Below are positions 2,985 through 39,663 of a stretch of DNA of 44,342 bases, in pieces. Each line of letters opens with the position of its first letter. The first letter of the stretch is position 1. A model generated the notes under the pieces. It saw only the letters and a list, made by a program, of their open reading frames with translations. It was not told where the DNA came from and made no database searches. The stretch comes from a virus (Duplodnaviria > Heunggongvirae > Uroviricota > Caudoviricetes): the IMG/VR virus record IMGVR_UViG_2547132254_000004, positions 1-44,342 of that record; one strand, given 5' to 3'. Made by a program: the position numbers and the translations under genes.

Positions 2985-3971
<987 letters not shown>

Positions 3972-4404: not shown

Positions 4405-5470
4405 GTGACGAATGTTTTTGGGAAGAGAATATATACCCTGGATGTTCTGAGAGGATTTGCCGCACTTTCCGTTGTGTTATGGCATTGGCAACATTTTTTT
4501 ATGAAAAAGAATGCTGCATCTGACATAATCATAAACCGCCAACCTTTTTATGAATTTTTTCCGTCTTTTATCATTACGGTTTATATGCTGTCGAATTGTT
4601 TTTTATGATTTCTGGATTCATATTTTTTTATCTATACGCTGACAATATACACAGCAATAAAACCTCAGCAAAAACTTTTATAGTTAACCGTGTCAGTAGA
4701 TTATATCCACTTTATATATTTACATTTGCTGTCGTGGCAATATTACAAATTATTTTCTTTAAAAGTCATAATTATTTTTTGTTTATCCTATGAATGACAT
4801 TTACCATGCCATTCTGAATTTATTGATGATTCAATCATGGGGATTTGAGCGAGGTTGGTCCTTCAACGCCCCGACATGGTCCGTGTCGATTGAAGTACTT
4901 ATGTACATGATATTTTTTATATTATGCAAGTTCACATCAAAAACAACATTCATATCAATTTTAATAGTTGCATTATCGTACTACTTTTTCAAAATTAACA
5001 ATCCCATAATGATCGGCGCATTCTCTTTCTTTATTGGTGGTCTGACTTATAAAATTACGATTGCGGCCATAAAAAATATTAGCGCAAAGTTATTTTTTAT
5101 TTTTGCTTGTGTTTTTCTATTGATCTCATGGGGAGTTATATTTACCCTGCAAGTAGCAGATATATTCTCAATTATCTTATTCGGATTTACCTCCATAATC
5201 TTTTTCCTTGTATCAATTAGCGCAATACGAAACGATTTTGGGAAAAAAATTGAATGGTTGGGCGATATCAGTTATTCATCTTATCTTTTACATTTTCCTT
5301 TGCAAATCATTGTTGTTTATTTAGCTGACAAGATTGGCTATGGACGCGATCTTTTTTACAGCCCCAAGGTATTCATTTTATTCATGCTTACATTAATGGC
5401 AATTAGCTATATGTCATATATATTCATTGAAAAACCATCGCAACAATTCATCCGAGATAAATTTCATTAA
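4405..5470 (+). pseudogene. Acyltransferase family 3 (O-antigen/LPS acetylase-like) gene split over three frames
   Basis: Track ORFs 4405-4608, 4596-4793, 4790-5470 lie in three frames and concatenate to ~358 aa with N-terminal LDVLRGFAALSVVLWH and a WSVSIEV motif; highly hydrophobic; both junctions at T6 runs; GTG start at 4405 preceded by AAGAGG; AT-rich. Confidence 0.6.
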
Positions 5471-5488
5471 GTAAAGTCACTTTGCAAT

Positions 5489-5523
5489 GATTAGAGTCAA
5501 CAACTATTACTTTGACTCTAATC
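5489..5523. repeat. Perfect 12-bp inverted repeat (GATTAGAGTCAA-N11-TTGACTCTAATC) between convergent genes
   Basis: Read directly; lies between the acyltransferase stop (5470) and the tail fibre assembly gene stop (5731); no U-tract. Confidence 0.4.
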
Positions 5524-5730
5524 ACACTGCAGTTTATCCGTATGCTCTATATTCATAAAAATCGACATCAATATATAGAATGGAAATAAACGAAACCGCG
5601 TCACATCCTCAATATAGAAGCGTTCAAAGCCTTGCAAACCATTGCGAGGCTTTATGTGTCACAGTTTTGTCCTACTTTTATTACACAAAAAGAATTGAGT
5701 TACAATTAAACCGCTTCTCCTCAACAGACT

Positions 5731-6171
5731 TTACTCAGCGAAGCACGGTTCATCCGGCCACTCAAAATCCGGTGCAATGCTGGTATCTGTTGCCGTCACA
5801 GCCTCGATATAATCCAGCACAACGTTAAGTCGGGTAGTTTCTTCTTGCGTCAGTTTGCGCCCGGCCTGCAGCTTTAACTGAATCACGCTGATATTGGCCA
5901 TTGCTGCGTCTATCAGCGACTGTTTTTTCTGTTCAGCGTCAGCTACCAGTTCATCATGAGAACGTTCCGGAGGGAGCGGCGCAGTAAATACCCCGTCTGA
6001 ATACCCCCAGCCGATTCCGGGATGCTCACTGATATCAGAAATATCAATGAGCTGCTGATTATCCGGCACTGTGAATTCAGCCTCGCCATCCCAGACAATG
6101 ACATTCACAACCATCCCATTTTCAATAACTGCATATGACGCATTCATTATGCAAACTCCTCGATAATACAA
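5731..6171 (-). CDS. Tail fibre assembly protein (Tfa/Mu U-like)
   Basis: 146 aa directly downstream of the tail fibre gene on the minus strand; sequence typical of enterobacterial prophage Tfa proteins. Confidence 0.75.
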
Positions 6172-8710: not shown

Positions 8711-9125
8711 GCGTTATCGCACTCCACAGATCATCAAAAGAAATCATTACCGGTCCGTCACGACGCCAGAGAGTGATACTGTTACCCAGTTCATTAATCC
8801 CGGTGCGGCGGATATCCAGATCAATGCGGGACACCACGCCGTCATCAATCATCCATTGCAGGCATTCGCGGATATACCCCCTTACCGTCTGCACCAGTTG
8901 ATTGGTCAGTTTGCTGCGCTGAAGCAGCCACAGTCGGGAGCCGTAACGGTCATTCTGTACCGCAGGCCAGGTATCCCCCCACCATCCCATCGGGACGTCG
9001 GCATTGTCATCAGGCTCCGCCCGCCGCCAGGTAAACAGGGAAATCACCACGGCGCGGGTCAGCGGATCCAGCGGTGCGCTGGCGCAGGTGCGTTTACCGT
9101 TCACCGTCAGCCACAGTTCCATCAT
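8697..9125 (-). CDS. Mu gp46-like baseplate protein
   Basis: 142 aa in conserved synteny between the gp45-like and gp47-like genes. Confidence 0.6.
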   Translation of the reverse strand: MMELWLTVNGKRTCASAPLDPLTRAVVISLFTWRRAEPDDNADVPMGWWGDTWPAVQNDRYGSRLWLLQRSKLTNQLVQTVRGYIRECLQWMIDDGVVSRIDLDIRRTGINELGNSITLWRRDGPVMISFDDLWSAITHGGQ

Positions 9126-9670: not shown

Positions 9671-10749
9671 CAGAACGGGTCCTCCTGTACTCTGGCTTTT
9701 TTCTTTTTCCGCGCGCCGGGGGCTTCGGGTTCAGGCAGATAAGCATCAGGTGGGCCGACTCGGATTTCCGTCAGGGTGCCGTTCTGGTCCTGAGTAAACG
9801 TGACTTCCGAGACAAGCAGTTCGGTATTGTCGAAACCACAGACCGGATCGAAGACAATCACCCGCTGGTTGGGCTGCCACAGCGTACCGTTACCCTGTCG
9901 CCAGCCCTGCACCACATAGGTGGTTTCATCCGTCCGCGCCGCCCGTTGCCGGGCTTCAAAGTCCGCACGGGCAATACAGCCTGCCCCCGTAGCCTGCCCT
10001 GTCTGCCTGATATACATCGGACGGTAACGGGCAATAAATGCGTCTTCTGTGCGGGCCCGCAGCGCGGTGGTGGTGGCCTCACCGAAATCATCGTCATTTC
10101 CGGCACGCTGCCCCGCCACCTGGTAAACTGAAAACCGCTCCCGGATACTCTTCTCCGTATCGCAGGAAAGGATGTTTTCCCCAAGTACCAGCGCGGTATG
10201 TGCCCGCGTTGAGCCAATACCGCCAATCACTAGCCTGCCGTGCGGGTCGTCGTAAGCCAGCGCCTGCTGCTGACCGAGTATTTTGTTGATCACCTCAATC
10301 ACCGTTTCACCGTGATCAGGCTGGACATCAGGAATAACACCAGACGGCGCACCGCTGTTCACCACCTCAATGCCGAAAGGCGCAGCAAGCGCCTGCGCAA
10401 TCTGAACCAGCGATCGTCCGTTAAACTGTGTCGGTTCGGCTGCACAGTCAATCAGGTCAGCGGTCAGACTACGCCCAGCAATACCGGTGCTGACCGAACG
10501 GGCATCGTAACGAACGGGAGTCGCCTCCACCCAGCCGGTGATCACCAGCTCATCACCAATCAGCACTTCCACTTTTGAACCGTTTTTAATACGCGGCTGA
10601 AGCGTGGTGATACCCTCATCTCCCGGCCACTGGCGGGTGATCTCCACACTGAAATCCCGCGTCAGCCGTTCAATACCGGCACCGATGCGCACCGATGTCC
10701 AGCCATTCCACTCCCGGCCATTTACCCGTAGCGTGACTTTATCATTCAT
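9670..10749 (-). CDS. Mu P (gp44)-like tail/baseplate hub protein
   Basis: 359 aa following the DNA circularisation gene in Mu order. Confidence 0.6.
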   Translation of the reverse strand: MNDKVTLRVNGREWNGWTSVRIGAGIERLTRDFSVEITRQWPGDEGITTLQPRIKNGSKVEVLIGDELVITGWVEATPVRYDARSVSTGIAGRSLTADLIDCAAEPTQFNGRSLVQIAQALAAPFGIEVVNSGAPSGVIPDVQPDHGETVIEVINKILGQQQALAYDDPHGRLVIGGIGSTRAHTALVLGENILSCDTEKSIRERFSVYQVAGQRAGNDDDFGEATTTALRARTEDAFIARYRPMYIRQTGQATGAGCIARADFEARQRAARTDETTYVVQGWRQGNGTLWQPNQRVIVFDPVCGFDNTELLVSEVTFTQDQNGTLTEIRVGPPDAYLPEPEAPGARKKKKARVQEDPF

Positions 10750-12074
10750 AGCACTGGCACCTTCAGAGGGATCACCGGCACAAAGCCGGGATGCGTAATG
10801 GCATTACGCCGGATAATGTCCGCGTCACGCGCCGCGTTATCAAACCAGGTCGCCGCCAGCACCAGCGCGGGTAAGACCTCATCCGGCGTGCGCTGAATGA
10901 TCCGTGCAGACTGTTCAAGGCGCGTGTTGATATCCGCATTCAGATCTGCTTTCACCCGGCGCAGCGCCAGAAACAGCGCATCACTGGTTGTACGGGACAA
11001 CTCCTTATCAATTGCCGTATTCAGTGTGTCGCGAATGTCAGTCAGTTCTTCCCACGTCGGCAGGTCAACCGTGTTTTTCACCGCCGGTGCATTGTTCAGT
11101 GCCGGATGCGTGACGGAAGGCCAGTCGGTGCTCTGCGCGGGTGTTGTTGACTGCCCCACTGCGGCATTCTGCATCACCGCGGAAATTGTTGGCGCAGGCA
11201 ATCGGGTGATGGCATACGCTGCTTCGCTGATTGCGGTCGTACGAAGGGTGCTGGCAACCACGTTACGCTGCTGCGTTGCCGTGACGGTGGTTTTACTGTC
11301 CGTTTTCCAGACGCCGCGCGGTTGCAGATCGCTGCCGAGGCTGACACCAGAAAGCGTTTTGATCATGGTGACCAGGTCGCTGGCGTTACCATAAAGGCGC
11401 TTCCCGGTACGCCACATTTTCTGCACCTGCTCAACGAAATTTTTTCCTGACGATGGCGGCGGCAGAAGTACCGAGATATCCCCCTGCAACAGCCTGGCGG
11501 CATCCGATACGGCAGAATCCACCACTTTCATCGCATCAGAAACATACCCCAGCATTGTGCTGGCATTACCGATAACGTCGTTCTGTACGAAATCCGCCAC
11601 GCCATCGATACTGAAACCACTGAAGCTGTCACTGATGCAGTCATCCAGCGCAGAACAGGATGACATCAGCGTCTGCGCCGTCGCCGCGCCTGATGTGGGG
11701 TAAGAGAGTTCTCCCGCTTCGACAAACTTCAGGTCAAAGCGGACAATACGCCCTTCACTCTTCGATGTGCTGACCCGAACTTCCCCGTCAACACAGACTT
11801 TCAGCTCACCGTATGTCGGGTGGACAAGCGTGCCGGGACCGGGTTTATTCAGCGCTTCAATCAGGCGATCACGCTGGTCAAAGCAGTCATCTCCCACCAC
11901 ATAAGCCGTGATGGACGGGCGGAAAGTGATTTTCCCCAGGTCTTCGGTATAGGGTTTGTCGCGGTTCGGGTATTCGTGTGTTTCCACACGGCGACCGGTT
12001 CCCGCACTTTCTTCTTCAACCTTAAACGGCACGCCGCGAAATGACGCGTCCTGAAGTCTGTCTTTCCACGTCAT
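10746..12074 (-). CDS. DNA circularisation protein N (Mu gpN-like)
   Basis: Start placed at ATG 12074 (MTWKDRLQDASFRGVPFKVEEE...) with GGAG 7 nt upstream; the track extension to 12116 translates a terminator hairpin. Confidence 0.7.
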   Translation of the reverse strand: MTWKDRLQDASFRGVPFKVEEESAGTGRRVETHEYPNRDKPYTEDLGKITFRPSITAYVVGDDCFDQRDRLIEALNKPGPGTLVHPTYGELKVCVDGEVRVSTSKSEGRIVRFDLKFVEAGELSYPTSGAATAQTLMSSCSALDDCISDSFSGFSIDGVADFVQNDVIGNASTMLGYVSDAMKVVDSAVSDAARLLQGDISVLLPPPSSGKNFVEQVQKMWRTGKRLYGNASDLVTMIKTLSGVSLGSDLQPRGVWKTDSKTTVTATQQRNVVASTLRTTAISEAAYAITRLPAPTISAVMQNAAVGQSTTPAQSTDWPSVTHPALNNAPAVKNTVDLPTWEELTDIRDTLNTAIDKELSRTTSDALFLALRRVKADLNADINTRLEQSARIIQRTPDEVLPALVLAATWFDNAARDADIIRRNAITHPGFVPVIPLKVPVL

Positions 12075-12087
12075 ATAAACTCCGGAT

Positions 12088-12113
12088 ATAAAAAAACCCG
12101 CCGAAGCGGGTTT
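12088..12113 (-). terminator. Rho-independent terminator downstream of the lipoprotein moron
   Basis: Minus-strand reading GAAACCCGC-TTCG-GCGGGTTT followed by a T7 run, 14 nt upstream of the gpN start. Confidence 0.6.
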
Positions 12114-12127
12114 CATTAAATTATCGC

Positions 12128-12805
12128 TTATCTAAAGTTACTTATTACCCGATACCTTATGCTTTGGTTACTCGCATCAAGTACTTCGAATTTAGCCCCT
12201 TTATAGCCAATTGTTTTAGACTCCGCGAGATCATACTCAACATCGTTGTTGAAGGCCGGGCGTGCTGTATTCGATGAAAATTCACGATATCCAATGTTGA
12301 TTTTGTTTCCGACCCTTCCGTTGTAAAGCAGAGCTTGCTGGAAAGATGAATCACCACTGATATTCAGAGTAACCTTTTCGATAGGCATGTTAGTTTCACA
12401 GTTGGTAACACCGAAAACTGTTATTACACATAAGGCATTCTTTTTCTTTTCTACCATGATGCCCTGCCACATATCGGCAAGGGCTGCCTTTTCCACATTG
12501 GCTGAATCAGCACCGTTTGTGAGAAAGTAATAATCAGCCTTGTTATCCTCACCAACCTTTTTCAGCATCCCCGGAGTGATCGTATACGCCCAGGAAATTC
12601 TCGCAGGAGCATTAACCTTCAGACCTTCAAACCTCTGTGACACCCCCTGCTTAATCATTGAATCACCGACATAAGCTGTATTAATGCTTCCTACAGGAGG
12701 TTCACTATAATTTTCTGTTTTTGGTAAATAATTGTACTTCGGAGAGGTACATCCCCCGAGTAAAAGAGCCATGCCGACAACTGAATAAATTGTTAAGACT
12801 TTCAT
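12128..12805 (-). CDS. Predicted lipoprotein, function unknown (moron inside the tail operon)
   Basis: Start placed at ATG 12805 (MKVLTIYSVVGMALLLGGC...) preceded by a purine-rich RBS; signal peptide with LLGGC lipobox; 225 aa; AT-rich by eye; sits between tape measure and gpN, a junction normally contiguous in Mu-like tail clusters. Confidence 0.6.
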   Translation of the reverse strand: MKVLTIYSVVGMALLLGGCTSPKYNYLPKTENYSEPPVGSINTAYVGDSMIKQGVSQRFEGLKVNAPARISWAYTITPGMLKKVGEDNKADYYFLTNGADSANVEKAALADMWQGIMVEKKKNALCVITVFGVTNCETNMPIEKVTLNISGDSSFQQALLYNGRVGNKINIGYREFSSNTARPAFNNDVEYDLAESKTIGYKGAKFEVLDASNQSIRYRVISNFR

Positions 12806-12886
12806 ATCCCTATTCCCATCATTAAAGTATCGGACTAATCCTACCAAGAACCTGCTAAACGACAAAACCCGTGTTTAAGCGGGGTA

Positions 12887-14728
12887 TCAGCCCCCCATAC
12901 CAAATCGGGTGTAGCCAACGTCGTGATTCACGTCGATACCGCTGGATCGCGTTTCCATAACCCGCATACCCGGAGGCGAATTCACAAAAGATACCTTGAT
13001 CTCACCATCAACTTTTGGCGCAGAAGCTTTGTTAATCATGAAGGGATTCGGGCCTGTGGCATTAGAGGCGTTGTTTGACTGAGCCGGATCCACCGCCGGA
13101 TAAGGTGTGTATCCCCGCGCCGGTATTCCCGTCCCATAAGCATCATAAGCACCCGCGCCCCACTGCGCCGAGTTAATGGCATCGACCGTGTCACCGGAAC
13201 TGTCGGTAAGCCACTCAATAATTGGCTTCAGCTTGTCCCACATATCCTGAAACCACTTAACAACCGGCCCCCAGTTATTGATCACCATCCCCAGCGGCGA
13301 CCAGGCAAAAACTTTCTTAAGGAGTTCCCAGCCAGCCTCAAAATAAGGACCAATGGTTTCCCAGAGCTTCTTGAAATAAGGTCCGACAACATCCCAGTTA
13401 GTGATAATTAATCCCGCAGCCAGGGCTATCGCCGTCGCAATCATGCCAATCGGCGTCATCGACATGATCCTGCTGACAATACTGATGGCACTGCCCACGC
13501 CCATCAATCCCAGTTTCAGAATCGCAAGACCGGCAGCAAGCCCGACGACGCCGCGAATAACCCGGGGATTTTCATCCGCAAACTTCGTGAATTTTTCCCC
13601 CAATTCCCCCAGCCATTGCGTGATATTTTTGGCGTCACCAGAAAATACGCCGCCAATAGCCGCAAGGCCGTTAGTTGCGGTCCCCGTCATTGCCTCCCAC
13701 AGGTTGGACAGCGTACCAAGCTGTGCCTGAACACGTTTATTCAGGCTGGCCTGTTTATTCATCTTCTGCTGGATCTGATCGTAGCCATCCTTTCCTTTAT
13801 CGATTAGTGCATTGACCACCTGAAGGGTTTCGGCATCATCACCAAATATTGCCTTAAGTACACCTGTTCGCTTAACGTCGGTCAGTTTTCGCAGCTTTGC
13901 CAGTTGCCTGAACATGTTATCAAGACCGCCAAAACTTCCTTTGCCGTCAGTAAAATCGAGCTGTACCCCGAGTTTCTGGCGGGCCATAACTTTATTAACG
14001 TCTCTGATTTTCTTAACGCTTAACCCGGACTGGATAACTTTTCGCAGGGCATTACCTGCCGACTCCCCGTTCATCCCCATCTGATCCATCATGACGCTGA
14101 TGGGAGCAAGGCTCTGTGCAGCCTGAAGACCGTCCTTATTCACCATCTTCAGAACAGAACTGGTTTTAGTGAAGAAGGACAACATGTTGGTATCGTCAAC
14201 GCCCAGATAAAACGCCTTCTGGATAGTGTCGAACAGCCCCATCATGTCTTCTGACGCCGTTCCGGTAGCATCCTGCATCTTTGCAGCAAACTCAGCAGCC
14301 GCTTCCGGTGTTTTTTTCAGTTGTACCGCAAGATAAGCTGTCGCTTTACCCACACCACCCAGAATGTTTTCTGCCGGGATCCCCTGACGCACCAGCATCT
14401 GCATCATGTTCTGGAAATCAGCCGTTGTACCGGGTAGCTGGTTACCCAGGCCAATAGCCAGTTTATTGATGTCCTGAAAGCGCTTTCCAACCTCGCCGTT
14501 CGCATCCATCATGGCGACTTTCAGCCCGGTGGCGGCGTTTTCCTGATCGGCATAAGATTTCAGGGAAAGCGTCAGACCCGCTGCCAGTCCGCCACCAAGC
14601 GCCAGCCCACCCTGTGACGCTTCTTCCGCCTGGCGTTTAAATCCCCGGATTTTCTTTTGCATTTTCGACAGCGCGGGAGAAAGCCTGTCGACACCGGTGA
14701 TCAACGCCTTAAGCTCAAATTCAGCCAT
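12887..14728 (-). CDS. Tail tape measure protein
   Basis: 613 aa, Ala/Gly/Leu-rich with hydrophobic segments, directly downstream of the frameshifted chaperone pair. Confidence 0.85.
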   Translation of the reverse strand: MAEFELKALITGVDRLSPALSKMQKKIRGFKRQAEEASQGGLALGGGLAAGLTLSLKSYADQENAATGLKVAMMDANGEVGKRFQDINKLAIGLGNQLPGTTADFQNMMQMLVRQGIPAENILGGVGKATAYLAVQLKKTPEAAAEFAAKMQDATGTASEDMMGLFDTIQKAFYLGVDDTNMLSFFTKTSSVLKMVNKDGLQAAQSLAPISVMMDQMGMNGESAGNALRKVIQSGLSVKKIRDVNKVMARQKLGVQLDFTDGKGSFGGLDNMFRQLAKLRKLTDVKRTGVLKAIFGDDAETLQVVNALIDKGKDGYDQIQQKMNKQASLNKRVQAQLGTLSNLWEAMTGTATNGLAAIGGVFSGDAKNITQWLGELGEKFTKFADENPRVIRGVVGLAAGLAILKLGLMGVGSAISIVSRIMSMTPIGMIATAIALAAGLIITNWDVVGPYFKKLWETIGPYFEAGWELLKKVFAWSPLGMVINNWGPVVKWFQDMWDKLKPIIEWLTDSSGDTVDAINSAQWGAGAYDAYGTGIPARGYTPYPAVDPAQSNNASNATGPNPFMINKASAPKVDGEIKVSFVNSPPGMRVMETRSSGIDVNHDVGYTRFGMGG

Positions 14729-29128: not shown

Positions 29129-29156
29129 GGCGGTACTACCGCCTTTTATTATTTTA
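29127..29156 (+). terminator. Rho-independent terminator ending the Q-S cassette
   Basis: AAGGCGG-TACTA-CCGCCTT followed by TTTTATTATTTT, overlapping the P4 stop and abutting the Q stop. Confidence 0.55.
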
Positions 29157-29513
29157 CACAAGTATACTTACAACCCCCTCTATAAAACCGATTGCGGTTT
29201 GCAACTCCTTCCTAATAGTGCCATCAGAGCACCTTCTCCTTTTGGCAATAGTGCGTAATGAGATACCAATAACAAAGTGGGCTATGATGAGCTCATATTC
29301 CTCTGGTTTATACTTTCTCAACCGAGCCACACAACTGTCTATCATAATGCCTTCGTCATCATCACACTGAATCCGTGACTTTTTGCCATGAGGTAAAAGC
29401 CCCTTGAAGCCTGCTGCTACCGGCTGCCAGTCCACACCACTGTTGTCTGCTGCAGCCCATGCTCCCCAGCGGTCCAATACTTCATACATATCACGCATCA
29501 ACTTACCCCACAA
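29154..29513 (-). CDS. Late-gene antitermination protein Q-like
   Basis: 119 aa at the end of the early-right operon upstream of the lysis genes; sequence compatible with the phage-82-type Q family by recollection. Confidence 0.6.
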   Translation of the reverse strand: MWGKLMRDMYEVLDRWGAWAAADNSGVDWQPVAAGFKGLLPHGKKSRIQCDDDEGIMIDSCVARLRKYKPEEYELIIAHFVIGISLRTIAKRRRCSDGTIRKELQTAIGFIEGVVSILV

Positions 29514-38334: not shown

Positions 38335-39663
38335 CTGATGAATCCCCTAATGATTTTGGTAAAAATCATTAAGTTAAGGTGGATACACATCTTGTCATAT
38401 GATCAAATGGTTTCGCGAAAAATCAATAATCAGACAACAAGATGTGCGAACTCGATATTTTACACGACTCTCTTTACCAATTCTGCCCCGAATTACACTT
38501 AAAACGACTCAACAGCTTAACGTTGGCTTGCCACGCATTACTTGACTGTAAAACTCTCACTCTTACCGAACTTGGCCGTAACCTGCCAACCAAAGCGAGA
38601 ACAAAACATAACATCAAACGAATCGACCGATTGTTAGGTAATCGTCACCTCCACAAAGAGCGACTCGCTGTATACCGTTGGCATGCTAGCTTTATCTGTT
38701 CGGGCAATACGATGCCCATTGTACTTGTTGACTGGTCTGATATTCGTGAGCAAAAACGACTTATGGTATTGCGAGCTTCAGTCGCACTACACGGTCGTTC
38801 TGTTACTCTTTATGAGAAAGCGTTCCCGCTTTCAGAGCAATGTTCAAAGAAAGCTCATGACCAATTTCTAGCCGACCTTGCGAGCATTCTACCGAGTAAC
38901 ACCACACCGCTCATTGTCAGTGATGCTGGCTTTAAAGTGCCATGGTATAAATCCGTTGAGAAGCTGGGTTGGTACTGGTTAAGTCGAGTAAGAGGAAAAG
39001 TACAATATGCAGACCTAGGAGCGGAAAACTGGAAACCTATCAGCAACTTACATGATATGTCATCTAGTCACTCAAAGACTTTAGGCTATAAGAGGCTGAC
39101 TAAAAGCAATCCAATCTCATGCCAAATTCTATTGTATAAATCTCGCTCTAAAGGCCGAAAAAATCAGCGCTCGACACGGACTCATTGTCACCACCCGTCA
39201 CCTAAAATCTACTCAGCGTCGGCAAAGGAGCCATGGGTTCTAGCAACTAACTTACCTGTTGAAATTCGAACACCCAAACAACTTGTTAATATCTATTCGA
39301 AGCGAATGCAGATTGAAGAAACCTTCCGAGACTTGAAAAGTCCTGCCTACGGACTAGGCCTACGCCATAGCCGAACGAGCAGCTCAGAGCGTTTTGATAT
39401 CATGCTGCTAATCGCCCTGATGCTTCAACTAACATGTTGGCTTGCGGGCGTTCATGCTCAGAAACAAGGTTGGGACAAGCACTTCCAGGCTAACACAGTC
39501 AGAAATCGAAACGTACTCTCAACAGTTCGCTTAGGCATGGAAGTTTTGCGGCATTCTGGCTACACAATAACAAGGGAAGACTTACTCGTGGCTGCAACCC
39601 TACTAGCTCAAAATTTATTCACACATGGTTACGCTTTGGGGAAATTATGAGGGGATCTCTCAG
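38335..39663 (+). mobile_element. IS10 (IS4 family), 1329 bp, flanked by 9-bp target duplication TGCTTTGCA
   Basis: Ends CTGATGAATCCCCTAATGATTTTGG... and ...GGGGATCTCTCAG match IS10 termini; identical TGCTTTGCA at 38326-38334 and 39664-39672. Confidence 0.95.
38442..39650 (+). CDS. IS10 transposase
   Basis: 402 aa (MCELDILHDSLYQFCPELHLKRLNSLTLACHALLDCKTLTL...) matching the IS10/Tn10 transposase. Confidence 0.95.
   Translation: MCELDILHDSLYQFCPELHLKRLNSLTLACHALLDCKTLTLTELGRNLPTKARTKHNIKRIDRLLGNRHLHKERLAVYRWHASFICSGNTMPIVLVDWSDIREQKRLMVLRASVALHGRSVTLYEKAFPLSEQCSKKAHDQFLADLASILPSNTTPLIVSDAGFKVPWYKSVEKLGWYWLSRVRGKVQYADLGAENWKPISNLHDMSSSHSKTLGYKRLTKSNPISCQILLYKSRSKGRKNQRSTRTHCHHPSPKIYSASAKEPWVLATNLPVEIRTPKQLVNIYSKRMQIEETFRDLKSPAYGLGLRHSRTSSSERFDIMLLIALMLQLTCWLAGVHAQKQGWDKHFQANTVRNRNVLSTVRLGMEVLRHSGYTITREDLLVAATLLAQNLFTHGYALGKL

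Follow-up and report, generated by a model that had tools for sequence, protein, structure and literature searches.

The lipoprotein gene and its flanks

We analyzed a 44,342-nucleotide (nt) stretch of DNA from a tailed virus (Caudoviricetes; IMG/VR record IMGVR_UViG_2547132254_000004, positions 1 to 44,342), hereafter called the window, in which a gene for a 225-amino acid (aa) lipoprotein is located between two tail genes, the tail tape measure gene and the gene encoding a gpN-like baseplate hub protein. The initial annotation of the window had regarded this lipoprotein gene as a moron, that is, a gene inserted with its own signals into a structural operon. The features of the locus are as follows.

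10746–12074, minus strand: gpN-like DNA-circularization/baseplate hub protein, 442 aa, the downstream flank (PF07157, DNA circularization N-terminus family, E value 8e-34; baseplate hub family phrog_184)
12090–12114, minus strand: predicted intrinsic terminator with a 9-bp stem, a UUCG loop and a 7-T run (from fold energy and conservation)
12128–12805, minus strand: lipoprotein coding sequence, 225 aa, 678 nt, ATG at 12805, TAA at 12130–12128 (WP_000866660.1, annotated as “hypothetical protein”)
12749–12805, minus strand: signal peptide and lipobox, codons 1–19, with the Cys19 codon at 12751–12749
12810–12814, minus strand: Shine-Dalgarno sequence AGGGA, within the conserved translation start region ATAGGGATATGAA
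12838–12846, minus strand: candidate extended −10 element TGG-TAGGAT, in which TAGGAT is invariant in an alignment of six contexts
12860–12865, minus strand: candidate −35 hexamer TTGTCG (in several copies, TTGnnn lies 16 nt upstream of TGnTAGGAT)
12887–14728, minus strand: tail tape measure protein, 613 aa, the upstream flank (PF10145, E value 5e-27, and tape measure PHROGs)

The minus-strand coding sequence and the Pfam families recognized in its two neighbors bear out the placement of a 225-aa lipoprotein open reading frame (ORF) between the tape measure and gpN genes. A mechanical ORF list gave a longer, 245-aa version starting from TTG at 12865; the true start is taken to be the ATG at 12805, which is accompanied by the AGGGA Shine-Dalgarno sequence and is kept in all homologues. 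The N-terminus reads MKVLTIYSVVGMALLLGGC followed by TSP, which corresponds to a classical signal peptide with the lipobox LLGGC, as had been reported in the initial annotation. The tape measure gene is separated from the lipoprotein ATG by an 81-nt spacer. On the other side, the gpN gene starts with ATG at 12074 and its Shine-Dalgarno sequence GGAG is found at 12083–12080, 6 nt past the T-run of the terminator.

The A+T-richness noticed earlier was also found: the G+C content was 0.40–0.44 in subwindows within the insert, as compared with 0.55–0.60 on the gpN side and 0.50–0.55 on the tape measure side, and the drop in G+C across the insert amounts to 12–18 points. The ratio of nonsynonymous to synonymous substitution rates (dN/dS), calculated against two diverged alleles, was 0.05–0.12, indicating that the ORF is a real gene under purifying selection. 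The opposite strand of the insert contained no ORF of 50 aa or more, and no Rfam family reached its gathering score over the insert region, where the only sub-threshold matches all fell on the terminator hairpin.

A polymorphic junction in SfV-type phages

The prophage has an HK97-type head, a P27-type terminase, a lambda-type holin and endolysin, a Q antiterminator and an integrase, as compiled from the window and the locus of strain M7424, which holds a locus 100% identical to that of the window; it also carries Rz/Rz1-type genes. Since only the contractile tail is Mu-like, this is a lambdoid phage of the SfV type. The earlier description of a Mu-like tail operon thus holds for the tail but not for the phage as a whole.

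The junction between the tape measure and gpN genes was surveyed in 5,426 complete Escherichia coli genomes. The 3-kb stretch around the lipoprotein gene had matches in 1,100 of these genomes, and its middle was covered in 53 matches only. With a 221-nt probe, an empty junction, with 60 nt between the tape measure and gpN genes, was detected in 542 genomes, and the lipoprotein insert was present in 54 genomes as two alleles with approximately 94% identity in DNA. The empty junction with the same 60-nt gap was found in the isolated phages SfV, SfII and SfI, the flanks of which share 96–97% DNA identity with those of the window, and the two genes have the same spacing in the locus L004. Two alternative cassettes occupied the junction in other genomes: a 164-aa protein with a signal peptide, predicted to be secreted and without a Pfam match (84 genomes), and an opposite-strand, membrane-anchored protein with an OB fold of the tRNA_anti-like type (PF12869; 54 genomes). 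The former is exemplified by L005:1466–1960 of E. coli M8 (WP_001219112), and the latter by L006:1486–1932 (WP_000734912). The tape measure–gpN junction is therefore a small hotspot for envelope-protein cargo, as all three cargo types are envelope proteins. In strain MSI001 (H34), an IS4-like element, IS421, was inserted near the same tape measure–lipoprotein region.

To characterize the signals of the cassette, six contexts were aligned: two E. coli alleles, prophages of Pseudocitrobacter, Citrobacter and Erwinia in which the gene is located upstream of a siphovirus tape measure gene, and a chromosomal site of Cedecea without nearby phage genes. Homology among them begins approximately 55–80 nt before the ATG and stops at the terminator hairpin. 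Two upstream blocks, TAGGAT and ATAGGGATATGAA (the Shine-Dalgarno site and the start codon), are invariant over the six contexts even though synonymous sites in the coding region are near saturation (dS ~1.2). TTGnnn is found 16 nt 5′ of TGnTAGGAT in the E. coli, Citrobacter, Cedecea (chromosomal) and Klebsiella-phage copies, being TTGACC in Klebsiella, and this layout is the arrangement of an extended −10 σ70 promoter. Of 23 distinct sequences upstream of enterobacterial homologues, 16 had TAGGAT at a similar distance from the start, mostly with TGn directly before it. The motif TGNTAGGAT occurs once in the window as against 0.97 occurrences expected by chance, so it is not significant alone, and in a generic promoter scan the element remained below the threshold, with weak hexamer matches. 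We infer that the conserved motif upstream of the lipoprotein gene is a candidate promoter with a predicted transcription start near 12831 and a leader of approximately 25 nt. TTTAAT at 12818–12823 was rejected as a −10 element in favor of TGnTAGGAT, because it would leave a leader of only approximately 8 nt and has no conserved −35 element. A hairpin at 12866–12884, just past the tape measure stop codon, was rejected as an upstream terminator, as its z score of −0.3 was no better than that of shuffled sequences.

At the other end of the cassette, the stem at 12114–12093 reads GAAACCCGC-UUCG-GCGGGUUUU and the 7-T run occupies 12096–12090. The predicted RNA fold has an energy of −16 kcal/mol (z = −3.1), and 1 of 200 shuffled sequences folded as well. 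A terminator pattern scan gave 8 sites in 5 kb as against 4.8 expected and is weak evidence when taken alone. However, the stop codon is followed by a GC-rich hairpin and a T-run in the E. coli, Citrobacter, Cedecea and Erwinia copies, where the stem shows compensatory changes (CCCGC/GCGGG, CTCGC/GCGGGG and TTCGC/GCGAGG), and this conservation, together with the fold energy, indicates that the cassette terminator is more than a chance pattern. The strong intrinsic terminator recognized earlier before gpN was thus confirmed as a prediction, except that the distance from the end of the T-run to the gpN ATG is 15 nt rather than 14 nt. As judged from the aligned sequences, the promoter-like element and the predicted terminator move with the lipoprotein gene into other phages and a chromosomal site.

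The empty junction has a hairpin of its own. In locus L004 (1385–1425), TCCCAC-UCCG-GUGGGA followed by six U residues has a fold energy of −14.8 kcal/mol (z −3.4) and is located directly before the gpN ribosome-binding site, and the corresponding hairpin of SfII (KC736978, 11928–11966) is annotated as a rho-independent terminator. A predicted terminator is present after the lipoprotein gene, as had been claimed, but a terminator-bounded gene is not by itself a moron signature at this junction, because the empty state carries a hairpin of equal strength. The empty, lipoprotein and 164-aa states share the layout hairpin-T6-(A/G)T(A/G)T(A/C)CGGAG-ATG, whereas the opposite-strand OB-fold cassette does not. 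The common layout of the three co-transcribed states points to a 3′ recombination boundary in or beside the T-run. The empty-junction stem CCCACTCCGGTGGG resembles the terminators that follow the lipoprotein cassettes of other phages, such as GCCCACTCCGTTGGGC in L040, and for this reason the “empty” state could be the scar of a cassette loss.

According to the moron criteria of Juhala and Hendrix, as given in PMC3594210, the lipoprotein gene is inserted between two adjacent genes, deviates in composition and has its own predicted terminator. It is absent from SfV, SfII, SfI and most related prophages, and thus it is not conserved in related phages making the same virion. Taken with the 542 genomes having an empty junction and the signals that travel along with the gene, these findings agree with the earlier proposal of a moron between the tape measure and gpN genes, and we consider it very probable that the gene has moron anatomy. 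It is a self-contained, horizontally mobile cassette at a polymorphic junction of an SfV-type temperate myovirus of E. coli.

Because SfV, SfII and SfI are isolated phages without the insert, the lipoprotein appears dispensable for the virion, and comparison with tail clusters lacking the insert, which the initial annotation had recommended, showed that it is not a conserved virion component. This bears on the alternative that the protein has an accessory or structural role in the lytic cycle, as a tail assembly factor, a spanin-like lysis component or a virion protein. The position of the gene within the late tail operon, on the same strand, is in keeping with such a role, as is the mitomycin C induction of an Acinetobacter homologue: in A. 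baumannii 17978, a “putative lipoprotein” gene (probably A1S_3759) directly before a prophage tape measure gene was induced 4.4-fold, compared with 8–13.6-fold for its tail-gene neighbors (PMC3978071). However, in addition to the absence of the gene from related phages, a protein exported by a Sec signal and lipobox cannot join tail assembly in the cytoplasm, lysis genes (holin, endolysin and Rz/Rz1-type) are already present in the prophage, and non-phage copies of the gene are common. We consider a lytic or structural role extremely unlikely; the identities of spanin and virion component were rejected on the grounds of the related isolated phages, the export signal and the lysis genes already present.

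Distribution of the lipoprotein family

The initial annotation had been unable to place the protein in a family. A profile search nevertheless assigned it to PHROG 1353, a family of unknown function, with an E value of 1.5e-98 over residues 1–225 and profile positions 1–227 of 230. The family has 1,067 homologues in a 90%-identity database and 3,057 representatives of 50%-identity clusters at E ≤ 1e-3 (1,897 at E ≤ 1e-10). The other PHROG matches were three weak ones (E values 0.015–0.26) to families of unknown function. No Pfam family was found at E ≤ 1, NCBIfam gave only a sub-threshold pilin match (E value 0.0048; 17 bits against a 138-bit cut-off), and no defense-system protein model of PADLOC-DB 2.0 matched at E ≤ 10. 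A phmmer search of the PDB gave no match, and a profile search of the PDB gave only a thioesterase at an E value of 0.24. A literature search for STM2726 (the copy in Fels-2), the WP accessions and phrog_1353 yielded no functional account.

Residue conservation was read from an alignment of 49 homologues. The lipid-attachment residue Cys19 is invariant in all 49 sequences, in which the lipobox may also be LLAGC, LLSGC or LLTGC. As Asp is absent from position +2 after Cys19 (LLGG-C19-TS), the Lol sorting rules predict that the lipoprotein is anchored in the outer membrane, in agreement with the significance attached earlier to the Thr-Ser pair following the Cys. Cys126 and Cys136 are also invariant and probably form an extracytoplasmic disulfide. 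P22, N25 and Y26, just past the lipid-bearing Cys, are invariant or nearly so, and the most conserved stretch is the C-terminal motif GNKINIGYREFSxNxARPAFNNDVEYDL...GYKGA. An AlphaFold2 model of the protein was all-beta, with a mean pLDDT of 90.9 and a pTM of 0.73; the mature protein is thus predicted to be an all-beta lipoprotein of approximately 23 kDa, processed from a Sec/lipobox precursor. In Foldseek searches, this model had no match at E ≤ 0.001 in BFVD, and its best match in the PDB had an E value of 0.15 and a TM score below 0.2. Long “fusion” homologues were rejected as multidomain proteins, because they were explained by mis-called starts and one capsid–lipoprotein chimera. This chimera (P0160, 446 aa) joins approximately 300 N-terminal aa of an HK97-type major capsid-like protein to residues 99–225 of the E. 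coli allele-2 lipoprotein and probably arose by misassembly or by rearrangement of a prophage.

Among phages, copies with 64–88% identity were found in Klebsiella, Providencia, Citrobacter, Pseudocitrobacter and Erwinia prophages, whereas Acinetobacter siphovirus copies were 48% identical and that of Moraxella phage Mcat28 was 46% identical. The P2-like phages form a distant branch (27%) that includes STM2726 of Fels-2, located in the accessory region after gpA/TumB. Apart from this branch, most phage copies lie near a tape measure gene and on the same strand, in at least five different tail modules. The usual placement is approximately 50–700 nt upstream of the tape measure gene (in a few cases up to ~2.5 kb) and after the tail chaperone genes, and the gene is directly downstream of the tape measure gene in the E. 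coli phage described here and in a Providencia siphovirus. The large neighbors were tape measure proteins in 22 of 22 cases sampled, belonging to at least three Pfam families (TMP_3 in 13, TMP_2/TMP_4 in 7 and PhageMin_Tail in 2). When lipoprotein sequences were clustered at 90% identity, 25 of 95 clusters were adjacent to a tape measure gene, without exception on its strand; such adjacency was also seen in 12 of the 17 IMG/VR clusters with full flanks. The chaperone-to-tape-measure site is often shared with Arc/Mnt/antirepressor or toxin–antitoxin morons.

Several other genes were observed beside phage copies. The siphovirus loci frequently have a gene for a small membrane protein between the lipoprotein and tape measure genes (L002:4683–4946, L008:6796–7164 and L014:5690–5827). 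The Acinetobacter version encodes 87 aa with two transmembrane helices, whereas the Klebsiella version encodes 122 aa, in which a zinc ribbon is flanked by transmembrane segments; the E. coli window has no counterpart. These small genes may represent additional morons of the gp15 type. In Pseudocitrobacter (L098, ~8750–8800), a short ORF (MKKWFFVAAL...) downstream of the lipoprotein gene starts with the same GATAGGGATATGAAG initiation sequence as that gene, so that the start region may have been duplicated or the ORF may belong to a related companion cassette. In a Providencia prophage (L017:1–1052), the lipoprotein copy lies beside recognizable defense genes, namely those for an AAA_15/AAA_21 ATPase and a D12 methyltransferase.

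Outside phages, the family was found in Pseudomonadota, Planctomycetota, Nitrospirota, Verrucomicrobiota, Gemmatimonadota, Omnitrophota and Bacteroidota with 40–54% identity. The neighbor-joining tree approximately followed host taxonomy, with three phage-dominated clades (Enterobacterales, Acinetobacter and Moraxellaceae) nested among bacterial copies. In 80 species-representative genomes, no neighbor other than the tape measure gene recurred, indicating that the lipoprotein has no operon partner. The immediate neighbors of non-phage copies were mainly housekeeping genes, and the commonest family among them, integrase, was found in 4 of 122 cases. In Vibrio parahaemolyticus (L179), the gene (5001–5681) forms an integron cassette of its own, flanked by attC-like repeats of approximately 125 nt (TAACAAAGC...GCGTTA) at 4785–4910 and 5691–5782. 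The array has at least 12 copies of the repeat and also holds cassettes for an acetyltransferase and further adaptive functions, and the contig showed no integrase. A Geobacter copy abuts an island integrase, and a gammaproteobacterial copy is cargo of an integrative and conjugative element (ICE) beside Shedu SduA (L184:7102–8238). The family is therefore a single-gene module exchanged on phages, integron cassettes, ICEs and islands.

The breadth of the family raises the alternative that the lipoprotein is a factor for host fitness or lysogenic conversion that is unrelated to phages and strengthens or modifies the envelope to the benefit of any diderm host, for example through contacts between the outer membrane and peptidoglycan, through ligand binding, or through resistance to stress, bacteriocins, tailocins, type VI effectors or predators. 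Such a role would fit a family that is spread over free-living diderm phyla and lies mostly outside phages, the presence of the Vibrio copy among adaptive cassettes, and the combination of strong purifying selection with a highly conserved C-terminal motif, which suggests a universal ligand; Bor and Lom of phage lambda are precedents for envelope morons with non-phage functions (PMC3594210). On the other hand, the protein matches no known envelope-function family in Pfam or NCBIfam, no conserved neighbor ties it to a pathway, and its repeated placement in tail operons and near toxin–antitoxin, antirepressor and defense genes fits phage–phage conflict better. We regard a fitness role as rather unlikely, although it is the main alternative to the role proposed below.

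Possible roles of the lipoprotein and other genes of the window

HK97 gene 15 is the prototype moron, and its product gp15 is expressed from the prophage and blocks genome injection in a manner that depends on the tail region of the incoming phage (PMC3594210). Like gene 15, the lipoprotein gene is an extra tail-operon gene beside the tape measure gene, forms an independent cassette, encodes an envelope protein and has bacterial non-phage homologues, and its siphovirus relatives occupy the same chaperone-to-tape-measure site. The two nevertheless differ in several respects. The YebO-like gp15 is small, spans the inner membrane with one transmembrane helix and has homologues only in Enterobacteriaceae, whereas the lipoprotein has 225 aa, is predicted to reside in the outer membrane, occurs in many phyla and has no sequence relationship to gp15; its gene lies here downstream of the tape measure gene and in a contractile-tail module.

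By analogy, we tentatively propose that the lipoprotein may act in superinfection exclusion at the level of the envelope, at the stage of genome delivery and after adsorption, a role that seems possible although somewhat short of probable. In the lysogen, the lipoprotein would be expressed from the cassette's own candidate σ70 extended −10 promoter, and the cassette terminator would keep this transcript out of the gpN and baseplate genes. During lytic growth, polymerase modified by the Q protein would read past the terminator, as is established for lambdoid Q proteins. The gene for this protein is located as follows.

29154–29513, minus strand: phage Q antiterminator (PF06530, E value 1.4e-44)

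The lipoprotein would then alter the envelope, and an infecting phage would adsorb but be stopped at the point where its tail tip or tape measure protein has to cross the periplasm to deliver DNA. Exclusion would occur by a generic envelope mechanism rather than by masking of one specific receptor, and the target, if universal, might be peptidoglycan, one of the conserved machineries of the outer membrane, or some general feature of the way in which tail tips or tape measure proteins penetrate. Exclusion is favored because of the gp15 precedent, the known lipoprotein defense in E. coli described below, the alternative envelope cargo at the junction, the neighboring conflict genes, and the lower mitomycin C induction of the Acinetobacter homologue, which would fit a higher basal level in the lysogen. 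Considered as a whole, the combination of moron cassette, expression in the lysogen and envelope exclusion is the best explanation at which we arrived, and we hold it to be about evenly poised between right and wrong.

Conservation across phyla supports a general role in envelope fitness equally. As for the linkage to the tape measure gene, a random site would lie within 3 kb of this gene in approximately 13% of cases in a 45-kb phage, giving approximately 4e-5 for five independent tail modules, and this rough estimate is weakened by shared ancestry.

Two other lipoproteins provide comparisons for exclusion after adsorption. A single-gene lipoprotein from the E. coli pangenome was validated as a phage defense that has no effect on adsorption (Vassallo et al. 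2022; PMC9519451). As deduced from the supplementary tables, this is probably PD-lambda-6 (396 bp, ~131 aa), compared with 225 aa for the lipoprotein described here, and the absence of a PADLOC match indicates that the two belong to different families. Ltp of Streptococcus thermophilus phage TP-J34 is described as a lipoprotein made from a prophage that brings about exclusion by preventing the injection of DNA (PMC3952083). Ltp is located on the surface of a Gram-positive host, its fold consists of helical repeats and its gene belongs to the lysogeny module, whereas the lipoprotein described here is all-beta in the model, belongs to diderm hosts and is encoded in a tail operon. The tape measure protein was reportedly identified as the target of Ltp by Bebeacua et al. 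in 2013. No homology to Ltp was detected, and Pfam and PHROG profiles and PDB and BFVD structures revealed no similarity of the lipoprotein to Cor, Llp, Ltp, Bor or TraT.

Cor of phages phi80, N15 and HK022 and Llp of phage T5 are small outer-membrane lipoproteins, with roughly 60–80 aa in the mature form, which act at the surface of the cell and are specific for FhuA. They suggest another possibility, namely that the lipoprotein binds and inactivates the outer-membrane protein serving this phage and its relatives as receptor, and also protects released progeny from inactivation on debris. As with cor and llp, a lipoprotein of the outer membrane (here predicted) is encoded in the tail-proximal region, and because the gene is oriented like the late operon, its product would be synthesized late in infection as well. 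However, the protein is approximately three times larger than Cor and Llp and has no profile match to an annotated exclusion PHROG or a Pfam family. Its family is far wider than any single receptor: copies with 48–88% identity occur in both myoviruses and siphoviruses, which infect E. coli, Klebsiella, Providencia, Acinetobacter and Moraxella and have tail tips unrelated to one another, and the non-phage copies in distant phyla make a single receptor unlikely unless it is universal, such as BamA or LptD. In addition, SfV-type phages use the O-antigen as receptor and exclude by its modification through gtr or oac. Since conservation across phyla argues against a receptor-specific blocker, we consider masking of this type very unlikely.

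Lambda Bor and plasmid TraT are likewise lipoproteins carried by mobile elements; they are expressed from the resident element and modify the surface, with roles in resistance to serum or in surface exclusion during conjugation. The size of TraT is close to that of the lipoprotein described here, but the latter has no Pfam match, and Pfam would include both families.

The proposal of exclusion at the envelope can be extended to the whole family. PHROG 1353 might be a pan-diderm, single-gene envelope immunity module with a new fold that, from its anchor in the outer membrane, blocks the trans-periplasmic genome delivery of many unrelated tailed phages (at the tape measure or tail-tip channel), with temperate phages keeping the gene linked to the tape measure gene and bacteria trading copies on integron cassettes, ICEs and islands. 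We think this extension improbable in its entirety.

As a genetic element, the lipoprotein gene is a textbook moron, and as a protein it belongs to an existing, uncharacterized family. What goes beyond the ordinary is the breadth of the family over types of mobile element, the recurrent linkage to tape measure genes, and a confidently modeled fold without a solved relative, although none of the three will surprise a specialist. Morons are the places where temperate phages keep genes that change the host, and most of them are uncharacterized. The present case lends itself to experiments, as the cassette is compact and the empty, filled and alternative-cargo alleles of one junction are available in hundreds of sequenced E. 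coli, and the members of the family number in the thousands and travel on four kinds of mobile element. Should the lipoprotein be a factor for exclusion or defense, a widespread envelope-level mechanism would join a catalogue dominated by cytoplasmic systems and would bear on which phages are chosen for therapy against lysogens of Klebsiella, Acinetobacter and E. coli. Should it instead serve envelope fitness in general, it would exemplify phages and integrons drawing on one adaptive gene pool.

Other genes of the window were also noted. By the tail-fibre end of the prophage, at positions 1–2719 and 3030–3971, genes for an EcoRII-type restriction endonuclease (PF09019/PF09217), which runs off the start of the window, and a C-5 cytosine methylase (PF00145) adjoin a gene for a GIY-YIG protein (PF22945); together these look like a restriction–modification/defense cluster. 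A 226-aa ORF at 4790–5470 matches only the C-terminal two-thirds of Acyl_transf_3 (PF01757) and may be a truncated serotype-conversion gene of the O-antigen acetylase type, and the corresponding region of the M7424 prophage contains the gtrA/gtrB genes. A DDE transposase gene (PF01609) is located at 38442–39650, within the early region of the prophage.

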